A stretch of 64,000 bases of DNA, taken from positions 49,839-113,838 of the IMG/VR virus record IMGVR_UViG_3300036828_000667. One strand, written 5' to 3'. Within the stretch, counting starts at the first letter, position 1; every line of letters begins with the position of its first letter. This DNA is from a virus. The notes beneath the pieces were generated by a model. That model worked only from the letters and a program-made list of their open reading frames with translations. It did no database searches and had not been told where the DNA came from. Below are positions 71 to 41,003 of this stretch, one piece after another. A program made the position numbers and the translations under genes.

Positions 71-140
71 AATTGTGCGGTTTGGCCTGCAGCGGAGCGG
101 ATAGGCTAGGTTCGGATAGGCAAGGAAAGGCGTGGTATGA
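71..140 (-). ncRNA. Pentamer-coded guide-like unit U1 (NNN-CC periods)
   Basis: Plus strand reads ggttt ggcct gcagc ggagc ggata ggcta ggttc ggata ggcaa ggaaa ggcgt ggtat. The minus strand ends in the shared ACCGCACAATT handle and has its own promoter at 151-179. Confidence 0.75.
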
Positions 141-2539: not shown

Positions 2540-2602
2540 AATTGTGCGGTATGGGATGCATGGGGCAGGTCCGGCAGGGTAAGCGTCGGGGTGGGGTGGA
2601 CA
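2540..2602 (-). ncRNA. Pentamer-coded guide-like unit U2
   Basis: 11 GG/GC-NNN periods on plus strand; minus strand ends ACCGCACAATT; promoter at 2609-2637. Confidence 0.7.
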
Positions 2603-6645: not shown

Positions 6646-6704
6646 GTGCGGTTTGGTTAGGAATGCAGTGGCTCGGCAGGGTTCGCTTCGGTTTGGTATG
6701 GTTC
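6644..6704 (-). ncRNA. Pentamer-coded guide-like unit U3
   Basis: 11 GG/GC-NNN periods on plus strand, ACCGCACAA handle, 3' hairpin, promoter at 6716-6744. Confidence 0.75.
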
Positions 6705-7356: not shown

Positions 7357-7362
7357 TTCTTC

Positions 7363-7426
7363 GGCGAACCGGTCCAATCCGAACCGACCCTATCCCTACC
7401 GGACCCTTGCACAGCATACCGCACAT
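7363..7426 (+). ncRNA. Pentamer-coded guide-like unit U4
   Basis: 12 periods; decodes to EGNEDYLGL vs DTNDDYLGL in the upstream gene. Confidence 0.8.
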
Positions 7427-7429
7427 CTA

Positions 7430-7460
7430 CCCCTCAGGCTGTATTACACAGCCTGAGGGG
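7430..7460 (+). terminator. Intrinsic terminator after U4
   Basis: CCCCTCAGGCTGT...ACAGCCTGAGGGG followed by TTATTATT. Confidence 0.7.
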
Positions 7461-7483
7461 TTATTATTATTAGGAGGTTAGAG

Positions 7484-11810: not shown

Positions 11811-12338
11811 ATGGCAAAACACAATGAAGAAAATGATCTATGGTTCCTTAGCAAAATCGCAGATGGAACCATTTCTGTATCCGAAGACGGAGAGGTCTTC
11901 AACAACAAGACAGGTAGATATATAGGCGCTCAACAAGGAGCAGGTTACCTTAAGATTTCTATGGCAAAGAGAGTTGATGGAAAACTTGTTATTGTCCATA
12001 TGCAAATCCATAGGTTAGTATGGCTACATTTCAAAGGACCTATTCCTCAGGGACTAGAAGTCAATCACAAAGATTTAAACAAATCGAACCCACGATTGTC
12101 AAATCTAGATTTACAAACACCCAAAGGGAATGCTGAACATGCCACCTTAAATGGTGTTGACCGACGCTCAAAAACAGGAGGCCATAAAAACGCTAATGCC
12201 AAATTTACACGTGAACAAGTCGAGATGCTACGGAGACAATTCAAATCGAAAGAAACCACAGTTAAAGAAATAATGATAAACTATAGTGTTTCTAAGCCAG
12301 TTGTGTATTGGATGCTGGAAGGAAGGACCTATAAATAG
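11811..12338 (+). CDS. HNH homing endonuclease
   Basis: HRLVW..F.G.IP.GLEVNHKD.NK.N....NL. Confidence 0.9.
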   Translation: MAKHNEENDLWFLSKIADGTISVSEDGEVFNNKTGRYIGAQQGAGYLKISMAKRVDGKLVIVHMQIHRLVWLHFKGPIPQGLEVNHKDLNKSNPRLSNLDLQTPKGNAEHATLNGVDRRSKTGGHKNANAKFTREQVEMLRRQFKSKETTVKEIMINYSVSKPVVYWMLEGRTYK

Positions 12339-12363: not shown

Positions 12364-12693
12364 ATGGTAGAATTTGGAGCGTTCATTCGCAAAGAACGAG
12401 AGGCCAGAGATATTAGCTTACGAAAGATGGCCAAGAAGATTGGTGTAAGTGCAACCTATCTATCACAAGTGGAACTTGATAGGTTCCCACCACCAACTGA
12501 GGATAGGGTAAAGGCTATTGCCAAGATCATTGACTGTAATCCTGACTACCTACTGGCCAAAGCTGGACGGATCTCGACCGACATTTCCGACATCATTAAA
12601 CGTCGTCCGATCGAGCTTTCGATGCTTATTCGAGCCGCCAAGTACTTGAGTAACGATGACATTGCCCAATTGATTAATGCGGCGTCAGCGTAG
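12364..12693 (+). CDS. XRE-family HTH transcriptional regulator
   Basis: FGAFIRKERE...SLRKMA..IGVSATYLSQVE. Confidence 0.9.
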   Translation: MVEFGAFIRKEREARDISLRKMAKKIGVSATYLSQVELDRFPPPTEDRVKAIAKIIDCNPDYLLAKAGRISTDISDIIKRRPIELSMLIRAAKYLSNDDIAQLINAASA

Positions 12694-12787: not shown

Positions 12788-12973
12788 ATGCGTTGCGATC
12801 GGTGTCAGGGAACAGGCTGGGATCGGGCAGGAGTACACCCTGTACTTGGGCCGCTCTTCGATTGCAACCATCCGTGTACTGAATGCGGCGGGTCAGGCAT
12901 CGCCCACTGTTGCGACGGCATCTGCGAACAGCCTTCAATTGACAAGTCTATAGATGACAAGCTAACATCTTGA
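12788..12973 (+). CDS. Small DnaJ-type zinc-finger protein
   Basis: CDRCQGTG...CTECGGSG; GGAGAGG RBS. Confidence 0.65.
   Translation: MRCDRCQGTGWDRAGVHPVLGPLFDCNHPCTECGGSGIAHCCDGICEQPSIDKSIDDKLTS
12938..12968 (+). promoter_or_regulatory. Sigma70-type promoter driving U5
   Basis: TTGACA-N18-TAACAT. Confidence 0.55.
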
Positions 12974-13046
12974 CGCCTACCGTACCACTCCGACGCCAAC
13001 CACACCGAGCCGGTCCATACCTTTCCAAACCAAACCACACTTTTTT
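12974..13046 (+). ncRNA. Pentamer-coded guide-like unit U5
   Basis: 13 periods ending ACCAAACCACAC-TTTTTT. Confidence 0.75.
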
Positions 13047-13224
13047 ATTACTACTAGATATTCAGGAAAGGCGAACATGAGAGGTTAGGTTAAACTAACT
13101 TCGTTCTTCCTTTAGCTCAGCTACAAACTTCTTAATCAGAGTTGTTAAGGTTGGAGTGTGCTTAGCTGGAAAGTTACCAGCAAGTACCTTGGCAATAGCA
13201 TACCGAATTACCTTAAACTCTTCC

Positions 13225-13476
13225 TCAGTTAGCTCCAACGTTATCACTAGGCACCTCGCCTTTCTTTATCACGCTAACCTTACTATCATCGATCTTCAGA
13301 GTAAACCTCTTATTATCCACAACTTCTCGCCATCTATTTTCCTCAATATAAGCACAGGCTTTAAGGTAGTCCGTCAAACAAAAAACATGAGTATGTATCT
13401 GTGACCAACACGGATGCTCACGGCATAAGTGTTCAATCTTGGCGGCTAACTCCCTGAGTGGTGATTGCATACCCAA
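13225..13476 (-). CDS. Hypothetical protein
   Basis: GGAGG near start, plausible composition. Confidence 0.5.
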   Translation of the reverse strand: MGMQSPLRELAAKIEHLCREHPCWSQIHTHVFCLTDYLKACAYIEENRWREVVDNKRFTLKIDDSKVSVIKKGEVPSDNVGAN

Positions 13477-13571
13477 CCTCCCTTTTGTGTGACCATAAAG
13501 TTACACTTAAATTGAATCTGATTCTGGGAATTGACCTGCCAAGGCTGATAGGCGAAAACTCATATTGCAAG

Positions 13572-13641
13572 GTCGAACCGCTGCCTTGCTTGCCAAACCG
13601 GGCCAAGCCGGCGCGGACCAAACCTCCGCACACCGCACAAT
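13572..13641 (+). ncRNA. Pentamer-coded guide-like unit U6
   Basis: 13 periods decoding to EALLKGKGGKSTA, the peptide encoded at 13756-13794. Confidence 0.9.
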
Positions 13642-13676
13642 GGGAGTAGTCAAATGGCTTGCAGACTACTCCCATT
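13639..13676 (+). terminator. Stem-loop 3' of U6
   Basis: AATGGGAGTAGTC...GACTACTCCCATT 13-bp stem. Confidence 0.65.
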
Positions 13677-13695
13677 AACACAGGAGTAAAACAAC

Positions 13696-14337
13696 ATGCT
13701 AATTTCAGTCACGATCTCCGGAATCCGACCTTTAATCCTCGACGCGTTTTCCGAGGAAGCGTTGCTTAAGGGGAAGGGAGGAAAGAGTACAGCCCAGCCC
13801 AAGGAACTGAGTCCCTTGGATCAAGCCAAGCGTAGGTTATACTATAATGGAGATGGTACCGACGTTCCTATATTCCCAGCAGACAACCTACTCAGCTGTA
13901 TCATCGCTGCCGGGCGGTTTATCAAGGTCGGGAAAAGGCAACTAACTACTCGCGACAGTACGACAGTAACTTCATTCCTACAGATATCAGAACTATATCT
14001 TCCCATTAGGTCGATAGATGGATGGCGAGTCGACTCCAGGAGCATCGTCAACCCGTCTACAAAAGGTCGTCACATATGCTACCGTCCCATCTTTGACGAC
14101 TGGGAGTTAGATTTCACGCTCGACATCGATACGAATGAAGCGAGCGACAGCTTGGTTAGACAGTTGATTGATAGAGCAGGTAGGTTTATCGGGATCGGGG
14201 TCATGCGGCCCGAAAGGAAGCGGCAGTATGGGCAATACGTGGTGCGCTGCTGGGATTGCCGTTCAGAACATGAAGAGCTTGACAACATACCAAAACTTGC
14301 TAAGAAAACTAAGACTAGATCGAAAGAACTAGTCTAA
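13696..14337 (+). CDS. Stand-alone RAMP / Cas7-like RNA-binding protein, candidate effector of the pentamer guides
   Basis: N-terminal strand ISGIRPLIL, PIFPADNLLSCI (cf. RAMP P.IPGSSLKG), C-terminal Gly-rich loop GIGVMRPERKRQYGQYVV; AGGAG RBS. Confidence 0.75.
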   Translation: MLISVTISGIRPLILDAFSEEALLKGKGGKSTAQPKELSPLDQAKRRLYYNGDGTDVPIFPADNLLSCIIAAGRFIKVGKRQLTTRDSTTVTSFLQISELYLPIRSIDGWRVDSRSIVNPSTKGRHICYRPIFDDWELDFTLDIDTNEASDSLVRQLIDRAGRFIGIGVMRPERKRQYGQYVVRCWDCRSEHEELDNIPKLAKKTKTRSKELV

Positions 14338-14467
14338 CACTGGTTCATCGCGGACCGTACCGGAGCGTGCCATGCCCGTCCCCGCCGAGCCCGACCAAAC
14401 CAGACCCAACCTACGCGGACCCAGCCTATCCTTAGCGTAGCACACCGCACAGTTAAGGCCAAAACCA

Positions 14468-14511
14468 GAAGGAAGGAGATACGGAAATGAAACCACGCAT
14501 CTCCTTCCTTC
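14468..14511 (+). terminator. Stem-loop 3' of unit A
   Basis: GAAGGAAGGAGAT...ATCTCCTTCCTTC. Confidence 0.6.
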
Positions 14512-15110
14512 AAACCCAAGTTTCGAACAATCCATGCCACTGCAAACCGCGCCAGCCCTATGCCTACCACTGTGAACCGCTCCACACCATTCTTTTATCA
14601 ATTATCAAGTCAACACTCCGAACCAGACCCCGCCTTACCCAACAGCACCCCACCAAACCGGACCGACCCACTCCAATGTGCACCTCAGCAGACCGAAGCA
14701 CACCATACTTTATCAATTGCCTTCCCGACCCGAGCTATGCCCAACCGACCCGACCCACTCCGGGCCGCACCCCTCCCTCCCATCCCGCAGCACACCATAC
14801 TTTATTTCATTACGACTCTCCGGCCCTACGCCAACCACACCAGCCCGGAGCGTGCCATACCGCACCATACTTTTATCATTTCAATGCGCACCGTCCCTCA
14901 CCGTGCCATCTCTCACCCGACCATACCATCCCTCCCCACCTCGGCCCGGACCCCGCCGATGCAAACCACACCATACTTTATCAATTTTCAGAACCATCCC
15001 GACCGTACCAGTGCGCGCCATTCCAATGCAGCCCTCGCCTCCGCATGTCAGGCCGCCCCGACCCATGCCGCACCAAACCACACTTTCTTTATCAACTAAG
15101 GAGAACCAGC

Positions 15111-15311
15111 ATGACCACACATCGTCCCACATTCGAAGACTGGCAGCTAGACTTCACTTTGGATTATAATGAAACTGAAATAGATGAAGGTACTATACGT
15201 AAGCTAATCGAAGTAGTAGCTGGAACGCACATAGGACTTGGCTCTATGCGCCCAGAACGACATGGACCCTATGGACAGTTTAAGATCAAGGAATGGACTC
15301 CACATTCTTAG
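15111..15311 (+). CDS. 66-aa truncated paralog of the RAMP protein C-terminus
   Basis: AAGGAG RBS; RPTFEDWQLDFTLD...IGLGSMRPERHGPYGQF aligns with RPIFDDWELDFTLD...IGIGVMRPERKRQYGQY. Confidence 0.8.
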   Translation: MTTHRPTFEDWQLDFTLDYNETEIDEGTIRKLIEVVAGTHIGLGSMRPERHGPYGQFKIKEWTPHS

Positions 15312-15598
15312 TCTTATCCATCTCTGCTTACCGTAGCCCTCATCACCGCACCCGTGAGCACCGACCCATGCCTGAGCCTACCTCAGCATACCCAACCGCA
15401 GCAACCCGGTGCGAACCAAACCACACTATTTTTTATACAATTTCAACTTACCGTCCCGGCCCGAGCCAGTCCATCGTGCGCCGACCCGTCGCTCCCCATA
15501 CCGCACTATACTTTATTCATTACCAACCATGCCATACCATGCCATTCCGGAACGCTGCCCTCCGGTCCACACCACACTTTCTTTAGGAGTTTAACCAG

Positions 15599-15844
15599 AT
15601 GGCAAAGGTAACTGGTATTGACGGTAAAAGCTTTATCAAAGGTCAACGTTTTGGTAAGCTAGTTGCGGTACGTCCACTAGGCTGGAGTAGTGACCGCAGC
15701 TGGTGTTGGCTATGTAAGTGTGATTGCGGCAATGAGACTATCTTAAGTGCTAACAGACTTCGAAGTGGTGAAGTTCAAGCTTGTGGATACGCTGTAACTA
15801 TAAAATCAGACACAAATGAGGAACACTGTAACGGACAGATATAA
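15599..15844 (+). CDS. N-terminal fragment of an HNH/AP2-type endonuclease family protein
   Basis: GQRFGKLV...W.CKCDCG......LRSG...CG; no nuclease domain. Confidence 0.65.
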   Translation: MAKVTGIDGKSFIKGQRFGKLVAVRPLGWSSDRSWCWLCKCDCGNETILSANRLRSGEVQACGYAVTIKSDTNEEHCNGQI

Positions 15845-16158
15845 TGACAAAGCCTACCATTACTGTCAAACAGAATCCCAATGAAGGTGACGTAGCTGAC
15901 TTCGTAGTTTGTCACCGTGTTTCTGTGCTACCTATCCCGTACGTGTCAGCTGAGATCCAACATTGCTCCAGATGTAACGAAAGGATATGGGTTGCAAACA
16001 CCTCTCCATCTAAGCCTCCTAAACTATGCTGGGAATGTTCAATTCCTCTAATTGCCAAAGACGACGATACAAGAATAATGATTACCGAACGGCAACGGGC
16101 AGAGGTTCAGAAGTATATGCAACTAGTCCAGAAACTCCAGGAGAAAAATGAAAAGTGA
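15844..16158 (+). CDS. Zinc-binding hypothetical protein
   Basis: CSRC...CWEC. Confidence 0.65.
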   Translation: MTKPTITVKQNPNEGDVADFVVCHRVSVLPIPYVSAEIQHCSRCNERIWVANTSPSKPPKLCWECSIPLIAKDDDTRIMITERQRAEVQKYMQLVQKLQEKNEK

Positions 16159-16408
16159 ACGTCATAAGATGCTCGAAATAGCCATGAGGTATCTCGACAG
16201 ACTATTCAACGGTAATGATAAAACAATAGAAAAAAGCACTGGAATTGTATTACTTACGTTCTCCTTTACTGACGAAGATGGTAATCATTGCGGTGATGAC
16301 AATGGGACTATCATCACCAATGGCATAGAAAGGGAACACATTGTAGGCATTATGGAAGCAATGCTAGAAAGACTGAAGGCAGACGATATACTTTTCAGAC
16401 GACATTAA
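16148..16408 (+). CDS. Hypothetical protein, paralog of the 7484-8080 C-terminal half
   Basis: LDRLFNG...TGIVLLTF.F...ITNG. Confidence 0.7.
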   Translation: MKSERHKMLEIAMRYLDRLFNGNDKTIEKSTGIVLLTFSFTDEDGNHCGDDNGTIITNGIEREHIVGIMEAMLERLKADDILFRRH

Positions 16409-16414
16409 AGACCT

Positions 16415-16969
16415 TTAAGTAGCATCATAGGCAAACTCACCAGCCAAACGTTTGGAAGCTTCCTCATACGCCTGAACCGCCTCTTCTACTGTGTTAAAGG
16501 TACCGATCTGAACGTCTTTATACATATGTTTTATTCTAGCCTCCCATTTTCCTGTGCTTTTCTTGTACCTTACTCCCTTAAAACCACTTGTATTATTTTT
16601 GAACATAGGACGATTGTAGCAATTCTGCTGTGTCGTCGCTGGACGAAGATTAGTCCATATATTGTTACCTGGATTTAGATCCTTATGATCTATCTCATAA
16701 TTAGGCCATTCTCCTGTCACATATAACCATATAATACGATGTACTTGATACATTCTGCCATTAACTTTTACCTGTATACGTCCTCCTTTCTTAATAGAAC
16801 CCGCCGTACTTCCAATAACAATCCTCCAGTTTAACGCCTCCTTCCATGTAAGTATACCAGTTTCAGGATCATAGTTAAAAATCTGCCTAACAAACTCAGC
16901 TGTTAGACTATTGTTATAGATACGAGTCCCCATTTTTACGCTCCTGTAGTGGCAGCCTTTACTGCCCAA
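16415..16969 (-). CDS. HNH endonuclease with C-terminal AP2 domain (likely start 16933)
   Basis: YDPETG, HRIIW, IDHKD....NN...NLR, NNTSGFKGV..W.A.I. Confidence 0.9.
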   Translation of the reverse strand: MGSKGCHYRSVKMGTRIYNNSLTAEFVRQIFNYDPETGILTWKEALNWRIVIGSTAGSIKKGGRIQVKVNGRMYQVHRIIWLYVTGEWPNYEIDHKDLNPGNNIWTNLRPATTQQNCYNRPMFKNNTSGFKGVRYKKSTGKWEARIKHMYKDVQIGTFNTVEEAVQAYEEASKRLAGEFAYDAT

Positions 16970-17139
16970 TGAACAGCCTCTTCATAAGCGGTTTGTGCTA
17001 AGGACGCTAACCTAGCATCTTTCGATTTCAGAGTTTCACATAGGTCGATCAACTCAGCAGACTTTTGCTTGATCTCATCAACTATAGTATCTGCACTTGG
17101 ATTAAATGCAGTCCGAACTCGTTGTTCACCGATTGTCAT
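16936..17139 (-). CDS. Acb2/Tad1-like helical-hairpin protein (possible nucleotide-signal sponge)
   Basis: R.ASLAQT.YEEA..WAVKA motif; AGGAG RBS. Confidence 0.55.
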   Translation of the reverse strand: MTIGEQRVRTAFNPSADTIVDEIKQKSAELIDLCETLKSKDARLASLAQTAYEEAVHWAVKAATTGA

Positions 17140-17150
17140 AGTACTCTCCT

Positions 17151-17181
17151 CTTGACAAGTTCACCTTGTTACACCTACGAT
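17151..17181 (+). promoter_or_regulatory. Sigma70-type promoter driving unit K
   Basis: CTTGACA-N18-TACGAT. Confidence 0.65.
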
Positions 17182-17186
17182 GATTA

Positions 17187-17246
17187 CTCGAACCGACCCC
17201 GTCCAGGCCACTCCTCCGCCCACCGACGCAAACCGCACAATTTTAT
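17187..17246 (+). ncRNA. Pentamer-coded guide-like unit K
   Basis: 10 periods ending ACCGCACAATTTT. Confidence 0.75.
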
Positions 17247-17361
17247 ATCCTACCATTTTCCACTACTTAGTTGGCTAGCAATAAGTCAAGCGTATAATTC
17301 TAAGACCCTACAAGACATACAAATGGGAACGTCCTAAAACCCGCAACAGAAAGTCCCGATC

Positions 17362-17529
17362 ATGCTAAGCATGGGCGACAAGGTAATAAAGGACACTGGC
17401 GACTATACTTTTTCGGGTGTCGTCATCGCAGTATTCCTAAAACGCAATGGTACTGCTGTAAGGTATGTAGTAGAGAACGAAGAAGGTATCTGCCACATAT
17501 TCAACGACCGCCAAATTAGAAAGGTTTAA
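17362..17529 (+). CDS. 55-aa SH3-like phage protein, not in the ORF track
   Basis: MLSMGDKVIKDTGDYTFSGVVIAVFLKRNGTAVRYVVENEEGICHIFNDRQIRKV, translated by hand. Confidence 0.65.
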   Translation: MLSMGDKVIKDTGDYTFSGVVIAVFLKRNGTAVRYVVENEEGICHIFNDRQIRKV

Positions 17530-17534
17530 TTTAT

Positions 17535-17777
17535 GTGAAGAAGTGTGACTATGCACATCAAGAAAGGTACAGAAGAGTGACAAAGGCAGAACTGACTTGT
17601 AGCGTATGCGGCAAACGTTATGAAACTCTAGGAGACTATGGGGACGACGTTGACTGCCAAATGATCTGTTTTCGCTGCTTCGAACAAGCTGATGCCATCT
17701 CTGCTCAGCAGAATCGCTGGCCTGATGGTCGAGACTTTCGTTACTTACGAGATATGAAAAAGCATCATCAAAAGTAG
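17535..17777 (+). CDS. Zinc-binding hypothetical protein
   Basis: CSVC...CFRC. Confidence 0.55.
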   Translation: MKKCDYAHQERYRRVTKAELTCSVCGKRYETLGDYGDDVDCQMICFRCFEQADAISAQQNRWPDGRDFRYLRDMKKHHQK

Positions 17778-17812
17778 ACCACACAATTACCATAATCAGA
17801 TTATACAAACTA

Positions 17813-17915
17813 ACCATACCGAGCCGAGCCGTTGCCGCACCATACTTTATCAATTTGATTCCCACCACACCTCCCCGGACCTATCCAGCCCCCTGCAAAC
17901 CGCACCATACTTACT
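17813..17915 (+). ncRNA. Two short pentamer units: L (17813-17855, with a 1-nt phase slip) and M (17859-17915)
   Basis: Same period and ACCATACTT tail as the main array. Confidence 0.7.
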
Positions 17916-17928
17916 TGTAATATAAATA

Positions 17929-18237
17929 TCAGTGAGTGTAGCTAGACTGACCATGCCCATCAGCATCCAATTCTTCACTAATTTCGTTGATCTCAATAGA
18001 CAGCATTTTACCAAACTCACTAAAAGCTTCCGGCCTATCCTCAGTCGAGGTAGCTCCAACAATTGCTCTAGCAACTACTTCACAAAGCACAGAACTAAGT
18101 TCCTCATAGTCAATTTGATCTCCTGGACTACCGTCCGGGTTTCCATTACGGCGATAAAAATCCGTAATGACTTCATTGAAAAAACAGCTAAGACATTCGC
18201 GTTCCCTACCGTCATCCGCTTTGATCTTATGTGCCAT
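17929..18237 (-). CDS. Acidic hypothetical protein
   Basis: AGGAGG RBS. Confidence 0.7.
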   Translation of the reverse strand: MAHKIKADDGRERECLSCFFNEVITDFYRRNGNPDGSPGDQIDYEELSSVLCEVVARAIVGATSTEDRPEAFSEFGKMLSIEINEISEELDADGHGQSSYTH

Positions 18238-18321
18238 ATTTAAACCTCCTACCTTTCACAGAACCGCTATACTTTATCCATAATCCACACTTAGTGATTT
18301 AGAAGTCAGCCAAGAGTTCTC

Positions 18322-18457
18322 TGCGTACCGACTCTTTCCGGACCGGACTGTACCACACTATACCATACCTCACCTACCCATACCTCGCCTAACCACGCCT
18401 TTGCGACCCGGAGCGTGCCTCGCCTACCCAATGCGACCCTGACCACAGCACACAATT
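18322..18457 (+). ncRNA. Pentamer-coded guide-like unit N (26 periods)
   Basis: Decoded reverse complement reads VVQSLYDTPSNVYDMYDIIVTPPKST, matching the terminase C-terminus. Confidence 0.9.
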
Positions 18458-18477
18458 ATAGGACTAAAAGACATGAG

Positions 18478-18510
18478 GTGGTGACTTGTATGGTTTGGGC
18501 AAGTCACCAC
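18478..18510. terminator. Stem-loop between unit N and the terminase stop
   Basis: GTGGTGACTTG...CAAGTCACCAC. Confidence 0.65.
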
Positions 18511-18514
18511 TTCC

Positions 18515-20440
18515 CTACGCAATTCTTTGAAACCTATCACCAAGAGACTGCAACGTATCCCTTATAGAGCCGTAAGCTTCATATACGTTGCTGGGCGTGT
18601 CGTAAAGCGACTGTACCGCATTATAAGTCGCAGCGCATAGGCTGTCCGCCATGTCGCAATGACTACCTTCTAATTGCGCCTTCACGACCTTATTATTTTC
18701 GAACCAGATGGATTCCAGTTCCTTCTTCAAGTCACGCATCATTCCAGTTTTGAGGCAATCAGTCGCGACAATGTTACTAAGAACATCATATGGTGTACGT
18801 GTCTTTTCCACGCTCAACACCTCCACAGTCTCAGCATACCCTATCGATGTAAGCTTCTGTATCAATTGTTCACTCTGATATTGGTCAGCTGTGAAAGTCT
18901 TGAACCCTAGACCATAGTAATCTCTCAAGTCTATAATGAACTCCTTGACTGCTTCCAAATTGATACGGTTTGGACTTGTGATCCTTAGAACCAAATCAGC
19001 GACGTATATCACCTTGCCTGTCCGGCTAAGCTCCTTGTGGACTACGGATAGCCCAGCTGAACTCACAGCAGCACCGTCCCAAGCTCCGTATCTAGTAGCC
19101 GCTGGATATCTTTTCCATCTGTATCCTTCAGGCGTAGCTATAAACAAGTCTCTCGGTAGCTGCTCTCGTAGCGGGGCTGGGATAGGCTGATTGGCATTAC
19201 CAAGAGGTGCCGAAACATAAAGAATCGGGCAGAGGTTTGGATCTTCGACTTTGCTGAGGTCATCGAAAGGCACCTCCTGACCCATGCTCGCTTGACCAGC
19301 TAGATTCATCAGGGATTGCTCTGTCCTTCTTTCAAAGTCACGTTGATATCGCTTAGGGACTTTCACTAGTGTACAAGACGGTGGAAGATCAAACTTGTCA
19401 TTCTCAGCTAGTACACTTTCTCTAGGTTCAAGTACCCTTGATGGGTGTCTTTGAGTACCACGCATACACCAGAAGTGACCATCATGTTTAAGCGCATCAG
19501 GATACTTGGTATCCCATATGGAGTACTGACTGACTTTACCAGCTGGATCATTTCGAAGCTGGGCGATGTGAGTAGCCATAACCCCCTTCTCATGAGCAAT
19601 AGAAGACAATAGAGTCATTAGCGTATAGCGGACTCCCAAGAACCTGGACCTTATGCGTTCAAAGATGTTGTCATATAGTGTAAATGCCTTGTCTACGAGA
19701 CCCTTGCTACCAATTCGAAATTCTGCCTCGTCGAGCATACCTCCAAACACATCTTCACCCAGAACATGTCGATCCTGTGATCCAGCGTAAATCTTTACGT
19801 TATTAGGAAACTCAAATCCTTCTCCATTGAATACCCATGGTGTAAGTTTCTCTAATTCAGGATCGTTCTCAAATTCAAGGAAGTCCCTTAAATGATTCAC
19901 CTTCCTGTAGTCCTTACAGGCTGAGAGCAATATCCCAACACGTTCAATCAGAGTGCTCTGGGCCTTCTCCTTAGTAACAGTAAACAGCTGTAGGATCATC
20001 GGCTTTGATGGGCCGGTACCCATACTCAGCTGAGGATTCCTGAAAGAGTTTATCCTGTAAACATTATACAATTGTGCTATTAAACCAGCAGTGCTCTTAC
20101 CAGTGCCAATAGCACCAGTTACTCCCCATCTACAGATAATAGATTTAGGAGCAAATATCTCAATCAAATCCTTCTTCCAGTTAGGAAACAAGATTAGTGC
20201 ATCATCCCCTATATAATCAGGAGTTAGAAACTCTTCTATAGTAGGTATTGGTCTCTTGAAACACATAGTAGTCAAGTCAGGGACTTCTTTAAAATGACCT
20301 AGCATTGTCAACGCTAGGCCAAGACGTTTCTTCTCAGGTGGAATCTCCCTAAGTCGAGGGTTTCTGGCGTCCATATCCAACATAAACTGAGCAAACTCGC
20401 TAGACTCAGCAATTCTGTCAAGCTCCACAGGATCTATCAT
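18515..20440 (-). CDS. terL: Terminase large subunit
   Basis: Walker A GAIGTGKS, Walker B GMLDEAE, C-terminal RNase H-like acidic residues (WD, ADQYQS, D.AD). Confidence 0.85.
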   Translation of the reverse strand: MIDPVELDRIAESSEFAQFMLDMDARNPRLREIPPEKKRLGLALTMLGHFKEVPDLTTMCFKRPIPTIEEFLTPDYIGDDALILFPNWKKDLIEIFAPKSIICRWGVTGAIGTGKSTAGLIAQLYNVYRINSFRNPQLSMGTGPSKPMILQLFTVTKEKAQSTLIERVGILLSACKDYRKVNHLRDFLEFENDPELEKLTPWVFNGEGFEFPNNVKIYAGSQDRHVLGEDVFGGMLDEAEFRIGSKGLVDKAFTLYDNIFERIRSRFLGVRYTLMTLLSSIAHEKGVMATHIAQLRNDPAGKVSQYSIWDTKYPDALKHDGHFWCMRGTQRHPSRVLEPRESVLAENDKFDLPPSCTLVKVPKRYQRDFERRTEQSLMNLAGQASMGQEVPFDDLSKVEDPNLCPILYVSAPLGNANQPIPAPLREQLPRDLFIATPEGYRWKRYPAATRYGAWDGAAVSSAGLSVVHKELSRTGKVIYVADLVLRITSPNRINLEAVKEFIIDLRDYYGLGFKTFTADQYQSEQLIQKLTSIGYAETVEVLSVEKTRTPYDVLSNIVATDCLKTGMMRDLKKELESIWFENNKVVKAQLEGSHCDMADSLCAATYNAVQSLYDTPSNVYEAYGSIRDTLQSLGDRFQRIA

Positions 20441-39960: not shown

Positions 39961-40335
39961 TCACGTCCTATTCTTACTATCAGAAAATGATGCAGCTGTC
40001 ACCAATCCTGCTCTTGCAGCCAGATAGTTCTTAACGAACGTCTCGTCCGGAGAACACATGAAGGCTATAGCTGACAAGGGCACTTGGATTTCTTTATGAA
40101 CTATAGGATTAGCATCATGAAAGACTATAAAGTTAAACCTTTTTACATCCTTTTGATCACGACTCACAAGGATAGGGTCCTTCACAATAGCAATAGCATC
40201 TATTATTTGAACAATCTCTCCAATAAACTCAATATTTCTTCCATTTATTGAAATAAACTTTACACCTGTTATGGGATGTACTGGTGGTACTATATCAGCT
40301 GGTCCACTAGTCAAAAAGTCTTTGGTATTATTCAT
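39961..40335 (-). CDS. Sm-like small protein
   Basis: Beta-rich pattern, E.IG...VK.P. Confidence 0.5.
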   Translation of the reverse strand: MNNTKDFLTSGPADIVPPVHPITGVKFISINGRNIEFIGEIVQIIDAIAIVKDPILVSRDQKDVKRFNFIVFHDANPIVHKEIQVPLSAIAFMCSPDETFVKNYLAARAGLVTAASFSDSKNRT

Positions 40336-41003
40336 TTGAGAACTCCACGGTATGAATCAAGATGCTTCCATTTTTTGCCACTCTTAATATGACTAATCAA
40401 AGATCGTGCAACACCATAATCACGCGCGATCTCATGCTGAGTGCGCTGGTCATTGATAATCGCAATAGCTTGAACCTCAGTTAGCTTTGCATTACCATGG
40501 GTTTCACCCTTACTACGATCTTCAATCTTGTTCTGGCGATCAAGATACTCCCAGCTTTTACCGCTCTTAATCAAGCTGATAGTTACCGGATTAACATTGT
40601 AGTCAAACGCAATCTCTCTATAAACACGATTGTCGTTAATGATCGCAATAACCTGAGCTTCAGTCAACTTCGCTTTACCGTGGTTCTCACCCTTACTCTG
40701 ACGACCTTTAGTGTTTCTATCATCCATGTTAATTTGATGATCACCTTCGAACAAATGATCTGGGTTGACACAATGCGGGACATCACAGCTATGCAAAATC
40801 TGTTGATCATCAGTAAGTGGACCTCGAAAAAGTTTCCAGGACAGTCGATGAGCACTATGTTTCCCACCTAAGATCGCCCAATTAACCCACCCATAACCAC
40901 CCACCAGTGTCCCAGTCCATAGCCAACATCCACGATTTGGTTCTAATACATAGTGAGCTTCAAAGCACTCTAATAAATTTTCGTCTGTTATTTCTCTACT
41001 CAT
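40332..41003 (-). CDS. HNH endonuclease with two C-terminal DNA-binding repeats
   Basis: CWLW.G, AHR.SW, HSCD...CVNPDHL; duplicated KGE.HG.AKLTE.Q.IAIIND. Confidence 0.9.
   Translation of the reverse strand: MSREITDENLLECFEAHYVLEPNRGCWLWTGTLVGGYGWVNWAILGGKHSAHRLSWKLFRGPLTDDQQILHSCDVPHCVNPDHLFEGDHQINMDDRNTKGRQSKGENHGKAKLTEAQVIAIINDNRVYREIAFDYNVNPVTISLIKSGKSWEYLDRQNKIEDRSKGETHGNAKLTEVQAIAIINDQRTQHEIARDYGVARSLISHIKSGKKWKHLDSYRGVLK

Follow-up and report, generated by a model that had tools for sequence, protein, structure and literature searches.

A VIPR locus with a variant pentamer in a 114-kb phage genome, and guide units that resemble neighbouring genes

Background

VIPR is a CRISPR-related DNA silencer first described in 2026, in three preprints (10.64898/2026.04.26.720920, 10.64898/2026.04.26.720927 and 10.64898/2026.10.15.759431). 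Its protein, Vipr, is presented there as a RAMP of ca. 20 kDa that binds vrRNAs, which consist of 9–16 pentamers (G-G-Y plus NN) and a 3' tail. The NN of each pentamer pairs with double-stranded DNA, and every third target base, which lies on the codon wobble position, is skipped; in the code as published, G1 is bound by the protein and carries no target information. The mechanism of silencing by Vipr and its vrRNAs was shown for phage SUSP1 in these 2026 preprints. According to the structure preprint (10.64898/2026.04.26.720927), H17 and D177 of SUSP1 Vipr bind G1, R138 and W178 hold G2, and R179 with neighbouring residues forms the pyrimidine pocket. The first preprint (10.64898/2026.04.26.720920) allows "a related consensus" and names the alternative vrRNA consensus classes NNNGG, YNNNG and NNNNG.

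The natural targets given for VIPR are rival phages and satellites, other VIPR systems among them, and the main text of the preprints reports no self-matches of at least 80% in four clades. Guides that target vipr itself, at early and late vipr codons, have already been published (10.64898/2026.10.15.759431). The same preprint reads the solo vrRNAs of the SUSP1 family as weapons against the VIPR of rivals, and describes vrRNA-targeting guides in that family whose self-match is below their non-self match.

The locus described here is in a 113,838-bp viral genome, IMG/VR record IMGVR_UViG_3300036828_000667. The window is the stretch of 64,000 nucleotides between 49,839 and 113,838 of that record; positions below are those of the window unless given as genome positions.

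Results and discussion

The genome and the neighbourhood of vipr

The genome (GC 43%) encodes a portal, a family-A-like DNA polymerase, DnaB-like and other helicases, a UvsX-like recombinase, an SbcC-like nuclease and an endolysin, and from this gene content it looks like the genome of a lytic-type phage. A tRNA scan of the window found none. The features of the VIPR locus and the guide units in the window are listed in Table 1. The HTH gene, the Cys-rich ORF and the minus-strand ORFs between the upstream HNH gene and the guide U6 are candidates for accessory (vap) genes. The type II VIPR of SUSP1 comprises Vipr, vap1 and vrRNAs (10.64898/2026.04.26.720920); here, by contrast, of 11 neighbouring ORFs compared with ca. 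90 related loci, none has a counterpart next to vipr. Relatives of the AP2-bearing HNH gene are found 2–9 kb from vipr in three of these loci (L034, L055 and L084).

The Vipr protein

The first-pass annotation had called the ORF at 13696–14337 a RAMP, and this is borne out by its fold and by its profile. The ORF has a match in phrog_4652 (E 2e-16), a family whose function is unknown, and 95 homologues in metagenomes; a Pfam scan of it matched no family. A profile of 40 family sequences aligned by hhalign with SUSP1 Vipr (the ALH47069 region of KT454805) with a probability of 98.5% and an E-value of 2.9e-15 over 165 columns. In a Foldseek search with the AF2 model (pLDDT 83.7), the best PDB matches were chains of Csm3, type VII Cas7 and Cas7-11 (E ca. 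1e-6). By this homology the ORF is a Vipr protein, with a predicted Cas7/Csm3 fold: a minimal RAMP homologous to a characterised Vipr and, as in SUSP1, phage-borne and stand-alone.

The backbone of class 1 CRISPR-Cas systems (Cas7/Csm3 and crRNA) has the same RAMP fold, G-loop and thumb as the model, and would share with the present system the arrangement of one protomer for each period of the RNA, in which bases are flipped out at regular intervals. The differences are that the present locus is without CRISPR repeats, cas1, cas2, cas5, cas6 or a large subunit, that the period is 5 rather than 6, and that the guide information is interleaved rather than contiguous. Identical direct repeats accompanied by cas genes, as in a CRISPR, are absent from the locus: the junctions between units are 15–20 nt long, the "spacers" are themselves periodic at 5 nt, and the ORFs around vipr matched no Cas family when scanned against Pfam.

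When the family is aligned to SUSP1 Vipr, H17 corresponds to D16, D177 to V169, R138 to R130, W178 to M170 and R179 to R171, all of which are conserved in the family. Both G1 contacts and the residue that stacks on G2 are therefore replaced, and the arginines are kept. These changes fit an altered constant motif, as far as contacts can be judged from an alignment.

A truncated second vipr, with its own RBS and ATG, has diverged from the first and splits the downstream guides into two arrays (14347–15079 and 15323–15573). It looks like the scar of a recombination between two VIPR loci.

Guide units, promoters and tails

There are 29 non-overlapping guide units in the genome, each of 8–20 pentamers, scattered over ca. 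52 kb. Around vipr, one unit is upstream and ten are downstream, forming tandem pentamer repeats in the non-coding DNA on both sides of the gene. The layout of the SUSP1 locus (KT454805) is the same: on the vipr-sense strand a single GGT-NN tract precedes vipr and several follow it. The range of ca. 8–20 pentamers per guide is a further likeness. Unlike in SUSP1, many of the 29 guides are separate genes, each with its promoter, guide and hairpin.

Positions 4–5 of the pentamer are [C/G]C in 97–98% of cases, and positions 1–3 are variable. Outside the two arrays, at least 14 units have TTGAC 28–44 nt upstream when read on the NNNCC strand, and the complementary strand shows almost none; several units fit TTGACA-N17/18-TAnnnT. 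Of the stand-alone tails that were folded, 4 of 5 form hairpins of 13–14 bp a few bases past the shared GCACA end (z −4.4 to −7.4), and neither the fifth tail nor an array-type junction forms a strong hairpin. The ends of the units are thus conserved or structured much as in SUSP1: most share an ACACC-GCACA-type end, and array units are joined by an ACACC-ATACTTTATCAATT junction. Past the hairpin that follows U6 there is an RBS and then the vipr start codon.

Given the TTGAC boxes and the tail hairpins, the guide RNA is the vipr-sense NNN-S-C strand, although its expression as RNA is deduced from promoter and hairpin anatomy. A reverse-complement reading (GG-N-NN) was also considered and is ruled out: the NNNCC strand is the one to which TTGAC boxes, hairpins and the orientation of vipr all point, and the GGC and GGT of other clades are in the same register on the vipr-sense strand. 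A search of 12800–18600 against Rfam matched no family.

Two stand-alone guide genes at genome positions 40184–40280 and 40727–40835 (L007:184–280 and 727–835) are 540 bp apart and carry different guides. Their terminator hairpins are near-identical, with compensatory changes (GAAUGACCUAAG... and GAAUGGCCUGAG...). This pair suggests that guide genes duplicate and are then re-programmed.

Table 1. Features of the VIPR locus and guide units in the window
Feature	Position	Strand	Remarks
Stand-alone vrRNA gene	79..138	-	TTGACA box
Stand-alone vrRNA gene	2548..2602	-	TTGACA box
Stand-alone vrRNA gene	6650..6704	-	TTGACA box; 14-bp hairpin
Stand-alone vrRNA gene	7361..7420	+	TTGACA box; 14-bp terminator hairpin 7429-7461
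Free-standing HNH_3 endonuclease gene	11811-12338	+	Flanks VIPR locus
XRE-type HTH gene	12364-12693	+	
Small Cys-rich ORF (CxxC motifs)	12788-12973	+	
Stand-alone vrRNA gene	12972..13036	+	TTGACA-N18-TAACAT promoter-like site
Two overlapping small ORFs	13095-13476	-	
vrRNA U6	13575..13639	+	13 pentamers N1N2N3-[C/G]-C; end is the generic handle ACACC-GCACA; decodes to EALLKGKGGKSTA
13-bp hairpin directly after U6 handle (3' tail or processing structure)	13639..13676	+	-22.1 kcal/mol, z = -4.4
vipr, 213-aa minimal RAMP (Vipr family)	13696..14337	+	phrog_4652, profile, predicted fold
Near-cognate site of U6 in resident vipr	13756..13794	+	First two codon bases match at 10/13 codons
Near-cognate site of unit A in resident vipr	14188..14247	+	34/40 guide letters match
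vrRNA unit A, first unit of downstream array	14347..14446	+	Decodes to IGVGVMRPERKRQYGQYLVT (Vipr G-loop)
Rest of array 1, six vrRNA units	14529..15079	+	ACACC-ATACTTTATCAATT-type junctions; without self target
Truncated second vipr, 66 aa	15111..15311	+	C-terminal third including G-loop HIGLGSMRPERHGPYGQF; phrog_4652, E 1.9e-9; tblastn to vipr of many loci
Array 2, three vrRNA units	15323..15573	+	
Free-standing HNH_3 endonuclease gene, also AP2 DNA-binding domain	16415-16969	-	Flanks VIPR locus
Stand-alone vrRNA gene	17190..17234	+	TTGACA-N18-TACGAT promoter-like site
Short vrRNA unit	17862..17906	+	Array-type junction
20-pentamer vrRNA	18350..18449	+	Best genome match 28/40, 109 bp away, antisense of 641-aa ORF 18515-20440

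Guide U6 decodes to codons 21–33 of vipr

The first-pass annotation had taken the fixed dinucleotides out of U6 and read the remaining triplets as the N-terminal peptide of the RAMP. Its parse is free of error: the unit splits into 13 pentamers, and their first three bases (GAA GCT CTT TTG AAA GGG AAG GGC GGA AAA TCC ACA GCA) translate to EALLKGKGGKSTA. The same 13 residues are encoded in frame in vipr, at codons 21–33. The counts given there were reproduced: all 13 residues agree with only 27 of 39 bases, and all 12 differences are silent. Five of the 13 codons are identical, and the differences include CTT/TTG, TTG/CTT and TCC/AGT. Eleven triplets are fully informative, as had been stated, the last two (ACA GCA) being in the ACACC-GCACA handle common to most units.

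To put the match against chance, the whole genome was decoded in five phases on both strands and compared with its own six-frame translation. Four guide–gene pairs stand out, with scores of 15, 13, 10 and 9; the score of 15 is unit A, matched over 14347–14431, and that of 13 is U6, both against vipr. In control genomes (one reversed, three shuffled) the maximum was 8–9. Among shuffles of U6, the maximum was 8 of 13 in 300 shuffles of bases and 9 of 13 in 300 shuffles of triplet order. The comparison with shuffled units proposed in the annotation thus gave at most 9 of 13 in 600 shuffles against 13 of 13 observed, and the match of U6 to vipr codons is not due to chance.

U6 is a vrRNA guide, and the "peptide" is a by-product of its target's codon register. 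Deleting the constant bases yields a peptide because the target has period 3 and the guide period 5, so that the register follows the codons. The claim of a broken code therefore holds as a decoding rule that is correct at this locus; it does not hold in a translational sense, since no peptide is spelled and the tract is a nucleic-acid guide. It is an independent rediscovery of the gapped, wobble-aligned logic of VIPR that had been published in 2026. Translation, editing or "reverse translation" of the units was considered as well and is ruled out; the codon register is explained by what is published on VIPR and by the homology to SUSP1 Vipr.

A 274-aa "ORF" at 14487–15311 (plus strand) crosses the C-rich guide array and may be annotated as a protein by gene callers. 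It is open because the pentamers are without stop codons in that frame. This open appearance is the one observation in favour of taking the units for an artefact that a C-rich periodic spacer produces by chance or by its composition, or for a cryptic peptide-coding element that is translated or edited. An artefact of composition would have to account for four independent guide–gene pairs above noise, for the distance between U6 and its shuffles, and for the same architecture beside vipr homologues in unrelated metagenomes; a cryptic peptide would need a decoding that skips two bases per codon, of which none is known, and a cryptic element finds no matching family in Rfam. Either has next to no chance of being right.

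The constant triplet and the third base

On the vipr-sense strand the constant triplet is N-[C 79% / G 19%]-C, with the last base C in 98% of pentamers. At the place of G1 any base occurs, A being the most frequent (44%). The same strand has NN-GGC in a clade of 40% identity and GGT-NN in SUSP1, and from this shared strand and register N3-S-C holds the places of G1-G2-Y3. The constant motif is therefore not G-G-Y, and this separates the locus from SUSP1, in which H17, D177 and W178 stand where D16, V169 and M170 stand here, with R138 and R179 kept. Since the first preprint allows "a related consensus", the locus is a variant of VIPR rather than outside the class. Among the named consensus classes YNNNG is the closest: in a Y-N-N-G-G register the unit reads C-N-N-N-[C/G], as if the first G had been freed. 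It differs in that the last position is mostly C, not G, and the main text of that preprint gives no reading rule for the freed position, which here corresponds to the third codon base.

This correspondence was measured in six in-frame guide–gene pairs, at codons whose first two bases match. N3 and the wobble base of the gene agree in purine/pyrimidine class in 31 of 33 split-box codons (p 6.5e-8) and in 12 of 27 codons of four-fold boxes. Two further observations do not depend on any target. N3 after TA is a pyrimidine in 17 of 22 pentamers, compared with 39% pyrimidine overall (p 2e-4), and in 11 of 14 in sister loci (p 0.03); and only 8 of 373 decoded triplets are stop triplets, where ca. 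18 would be expected from composition. The depletion of stop triplets holds also in guides without a self match. The former G1 position, invariant in SUSP1, thus varies and tracks the target's third codon base. N3 behaves like a third codon base, each pentamer carrying a codon-like triplet, and for this reason the decoding rule of the first-pass annotation is the natural one for the clade.

Resident genes beside the guides resemble the guides

The first two bases of each unit of every guide were compared with both strands of the genome. For 7 of the 29 guides, the best match in the whole genome is within 65–300 bp of the guide, where chance would give ca. 0.1 guides (estimated from a 600-bp zone in ca. 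228 kb of two-strand sequence, times 29). Every one of the seven proximal matches keeps the codon frame and puts the skipped base on the wobble position. Two of them are in vipr, for U6 (20/24) and unit A (34/40); four belong to guides whose look-alikes are ORFs, small or unannotated, left of the window, and the last belongs to the guide at 18350–18449. Judged from these near-cognate sites, the targets are coding sequence read with period 3, the odd base falling on the wobble position as in SUSP1; the search found no perfect natural target for gapped recognition, near-cognate sites being the only ones.

The guide at 18350–18449 contains TAA and TGA because its look-alike (18558–18617) is on the antisense strand of a 641-aa ORF. 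The skipped base is still on the wobble position of that antisense look-alike.

Eight codons are mismatched in the two vipr pairs, and 5 of them are synonymous switches between the families of six-fold codons: all three at the U6 site (Leu, Leu and Ser) and two of five at the unit A site (Arg, CGN/AGR). Four of the non-vipr pairs have a core of 6–11 pentamers with 0–1 mismatches at the first two codon bases, and ends that disagree. Because the cores match at these two bases, these four resident genes would be protected only by third-base differences.

One explanation of the proximity is that the guides bind the resident neighbours, vipr and five others, and tune or shut off their transcription in cis, as autoregulation or temporal control. 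All seven sites are at most 300 bp from the guide gene. At the two read bases, six pairs are 79–88% identical, which is near or above the cut-off of at least 80% that the preprints use for targets, and the remaining pair is 70% identical; the guide at genome positions 47329–47393 matches its neighbour in the first two bases of 10 of 10 consecutive codons. For the vipr pairs this identity is 83–85%, above the cut-off, and counts against the idea that the guides spare their own genome. Regulation in cis nevertheless leaves two things unexplained: a third base that preserves the amino-acid class but tends not to be that of the resident codon, and Leu, Ser and Arg codons drawn from the other codon family. 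The sites are in mid-gene or near the 3' end, away from promoters. The preprints, in their main text, report no self-targets in four clades, and among the 201 guides of ca. 90 related loci none matches its own vipr and one has a marginal self match. Autoregulation is accordingly an unlikely explanation.

The third base was also compared directly, over 57 codons. Guide and resident codon are identical in 13 of these, compared with 21.8 expected from the codon usage of the phage (p 0.007). Silent recoding beyond random codon choice is what would be expected of selection against self-recognition, if the third base counts. It bears as well on the possibility that the guides were copied from the adjacent gene and that the resemblance is a decaying fossil, the silent sites of the gene having drifted since. 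Such an origin would place each guide beside its look-alike, and if the guide were static, purifying selection acting on the gene would leave split boxes agreeing in class only. It would, on the other hand, require saturated silent divergence with 13 of 13 residues kept where homologues vary (the best other has 7 of 13). An identity below the random-codon expectation argues for avoidance, not drift; stop triplets are depleted in guides without a self match too; and no mechanism is known that inserts two bases after every codon. A fossil of this kind is improbable.

Related loci and the search for the cognate allele

NNN-[C/G]C units of the same type are found beside vipr and on its strand in three related loci (L001, L008 and L011); in L001, whose Vipr has 62% identity, 11 units follow directly downstream. 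Pentamer tracts flank vipr in 80 further IMG/VR loci. In distant Vipr clades (L034:10600–10960, L085:4412–4760 and L024/L027/L028), uninterrupted GGC-NN or GGY-NN tracts of 45–63 pentamers come directly after vipr. These tracts are far above the 9–16 pentamers per vrRNA and may be the "staggered" arrays of the preprint.

The allele decoded from U6, for which a search among RAMP homologues had been proposed, is absent from every collection searched. The decoded 38-mer was absent from IMG/VR in an exact scan, the gapped patterns of unit A and of one array guide had no match in IMG/VR, and the gapped pattern of U6 had none in the GTDB genome collection. The closest Vipr among 5.8 billion proteins is 66% identical, and none of the 95 homologues carries the decoded peptide (best 7/13). 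Close relatives in JGI metagenomes, at best 64% identical, were without peptide or pattern. The locus had no blastn match among GenBank phages, and tblastn found only two Gordonia phages, at 25–27% identity. Cross-targeting among ca. 90 loci was limited to unit A against the vipr G-loop of two loci (L001 and L009), at 32/40 (80%).

Probable guides against sister-phage alleles

The reading favoured here is that the guides are probably aimed at alleles of sister phages, each guide being linked to a silently recoded resident copy. Vipr would polymerise along the guide RNA, one protomer per pentamer, and hold the constant bases; the variable bases would be presented to double-stranded DNA, and the bound gene would be silenced. 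The freed N3 carries third-codon-base information, and an entire codon is thus stored in each pentamer. Of the guides, U6 would be a vipr-targeting one for the early codons and unit A one for the G-loop codons; the cognate of both is most likely the vipr of closely related rivals. Their footprints are the two that have been published for vipr-targeting guides, which supports this. The rival phage is hypothetical, since no Vipr searched carries the decoded peptide.

The resident vipr and five other guide-adjacent genes would then be silently recoded copies: Leu, Ser and Arg codons would have changed family, and third bases would avoid those of the guide. In this way the phage would be safe from its own guide, and tight linkage would hold guide and resistant allele together. 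The UvsX-like recombinase, the SbcC-like nuclease and the HNH homing-type genes around the locus provide the setting for this linkage.

The SUSP1-family solo vrRNAs (10.64898/2026.10.15.759431) are alike in being wobble-aligned at early and near-end vipr codons. Their carriers are described as having mostly lost vipr, whereas vipr is kept here and is flanked by guides. Two more differences are that the closest known match of the present guides is the resident gene (83–85%, with only silent differences), and that the rival allele is absent from the databases searched.

Considerably more tentative, and on balance rather doubtful, is the full form of this reading: that the first constant base was released from the protein and is now a third base, read or copied from the target, and that guides spread as poison–antidote cassettes of a guide plus a silently recoded resistant allele. 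These would silence the unrecoded allele of sister phages at co-infection and be hard for recombination to split.

In the marker exclusion of T4-like phages, free-standing homing endonucleases are a selfish function beside a resistant variant of their own target site. The likeness is one of analogy only: here too a selfish function would adjoin a resistant variant, in a recombination-proficient lytic phage. The differences are that recognition here is, from the anatomy of the guides, RNA-guided, and that the evidence here bears on neither cleavage nor conversion.

Conclusions

The VIPR class, its gapped codon-phased code and the existence of vipr-targeting guides are already in print, from April to October 2026. 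Three features of the present locus appear to go beyond the main text of the preprints: a third base that carries information within an N-S-C scaffold, the scattering over ca. 52 kb of guides as genes with a promoter and in part a hairpin, and the statistical signature of resident alleles recoded silently beside their guides.

G-G-Y has become N-S-C here, and the residues in contact with G1 and G2 have changed to match, which points to plasticity in the grip of the protein on its RNA. Perhaps the gapped code can hold three informative bases per unit instead of two, an extension that bears on the engineering of specificity. A phage that targets conserved genes of its relatives has to avoid itself, and silent recoding is suggested as the answer; switches between the Leu, Ser and Arg codon families are the only silent escapes from a wobble-blind code. 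If the linkage of guide and resistant allele is true, it would make the population biology of VIPR guides in recombining lytic phages resemble that of a gene drive.
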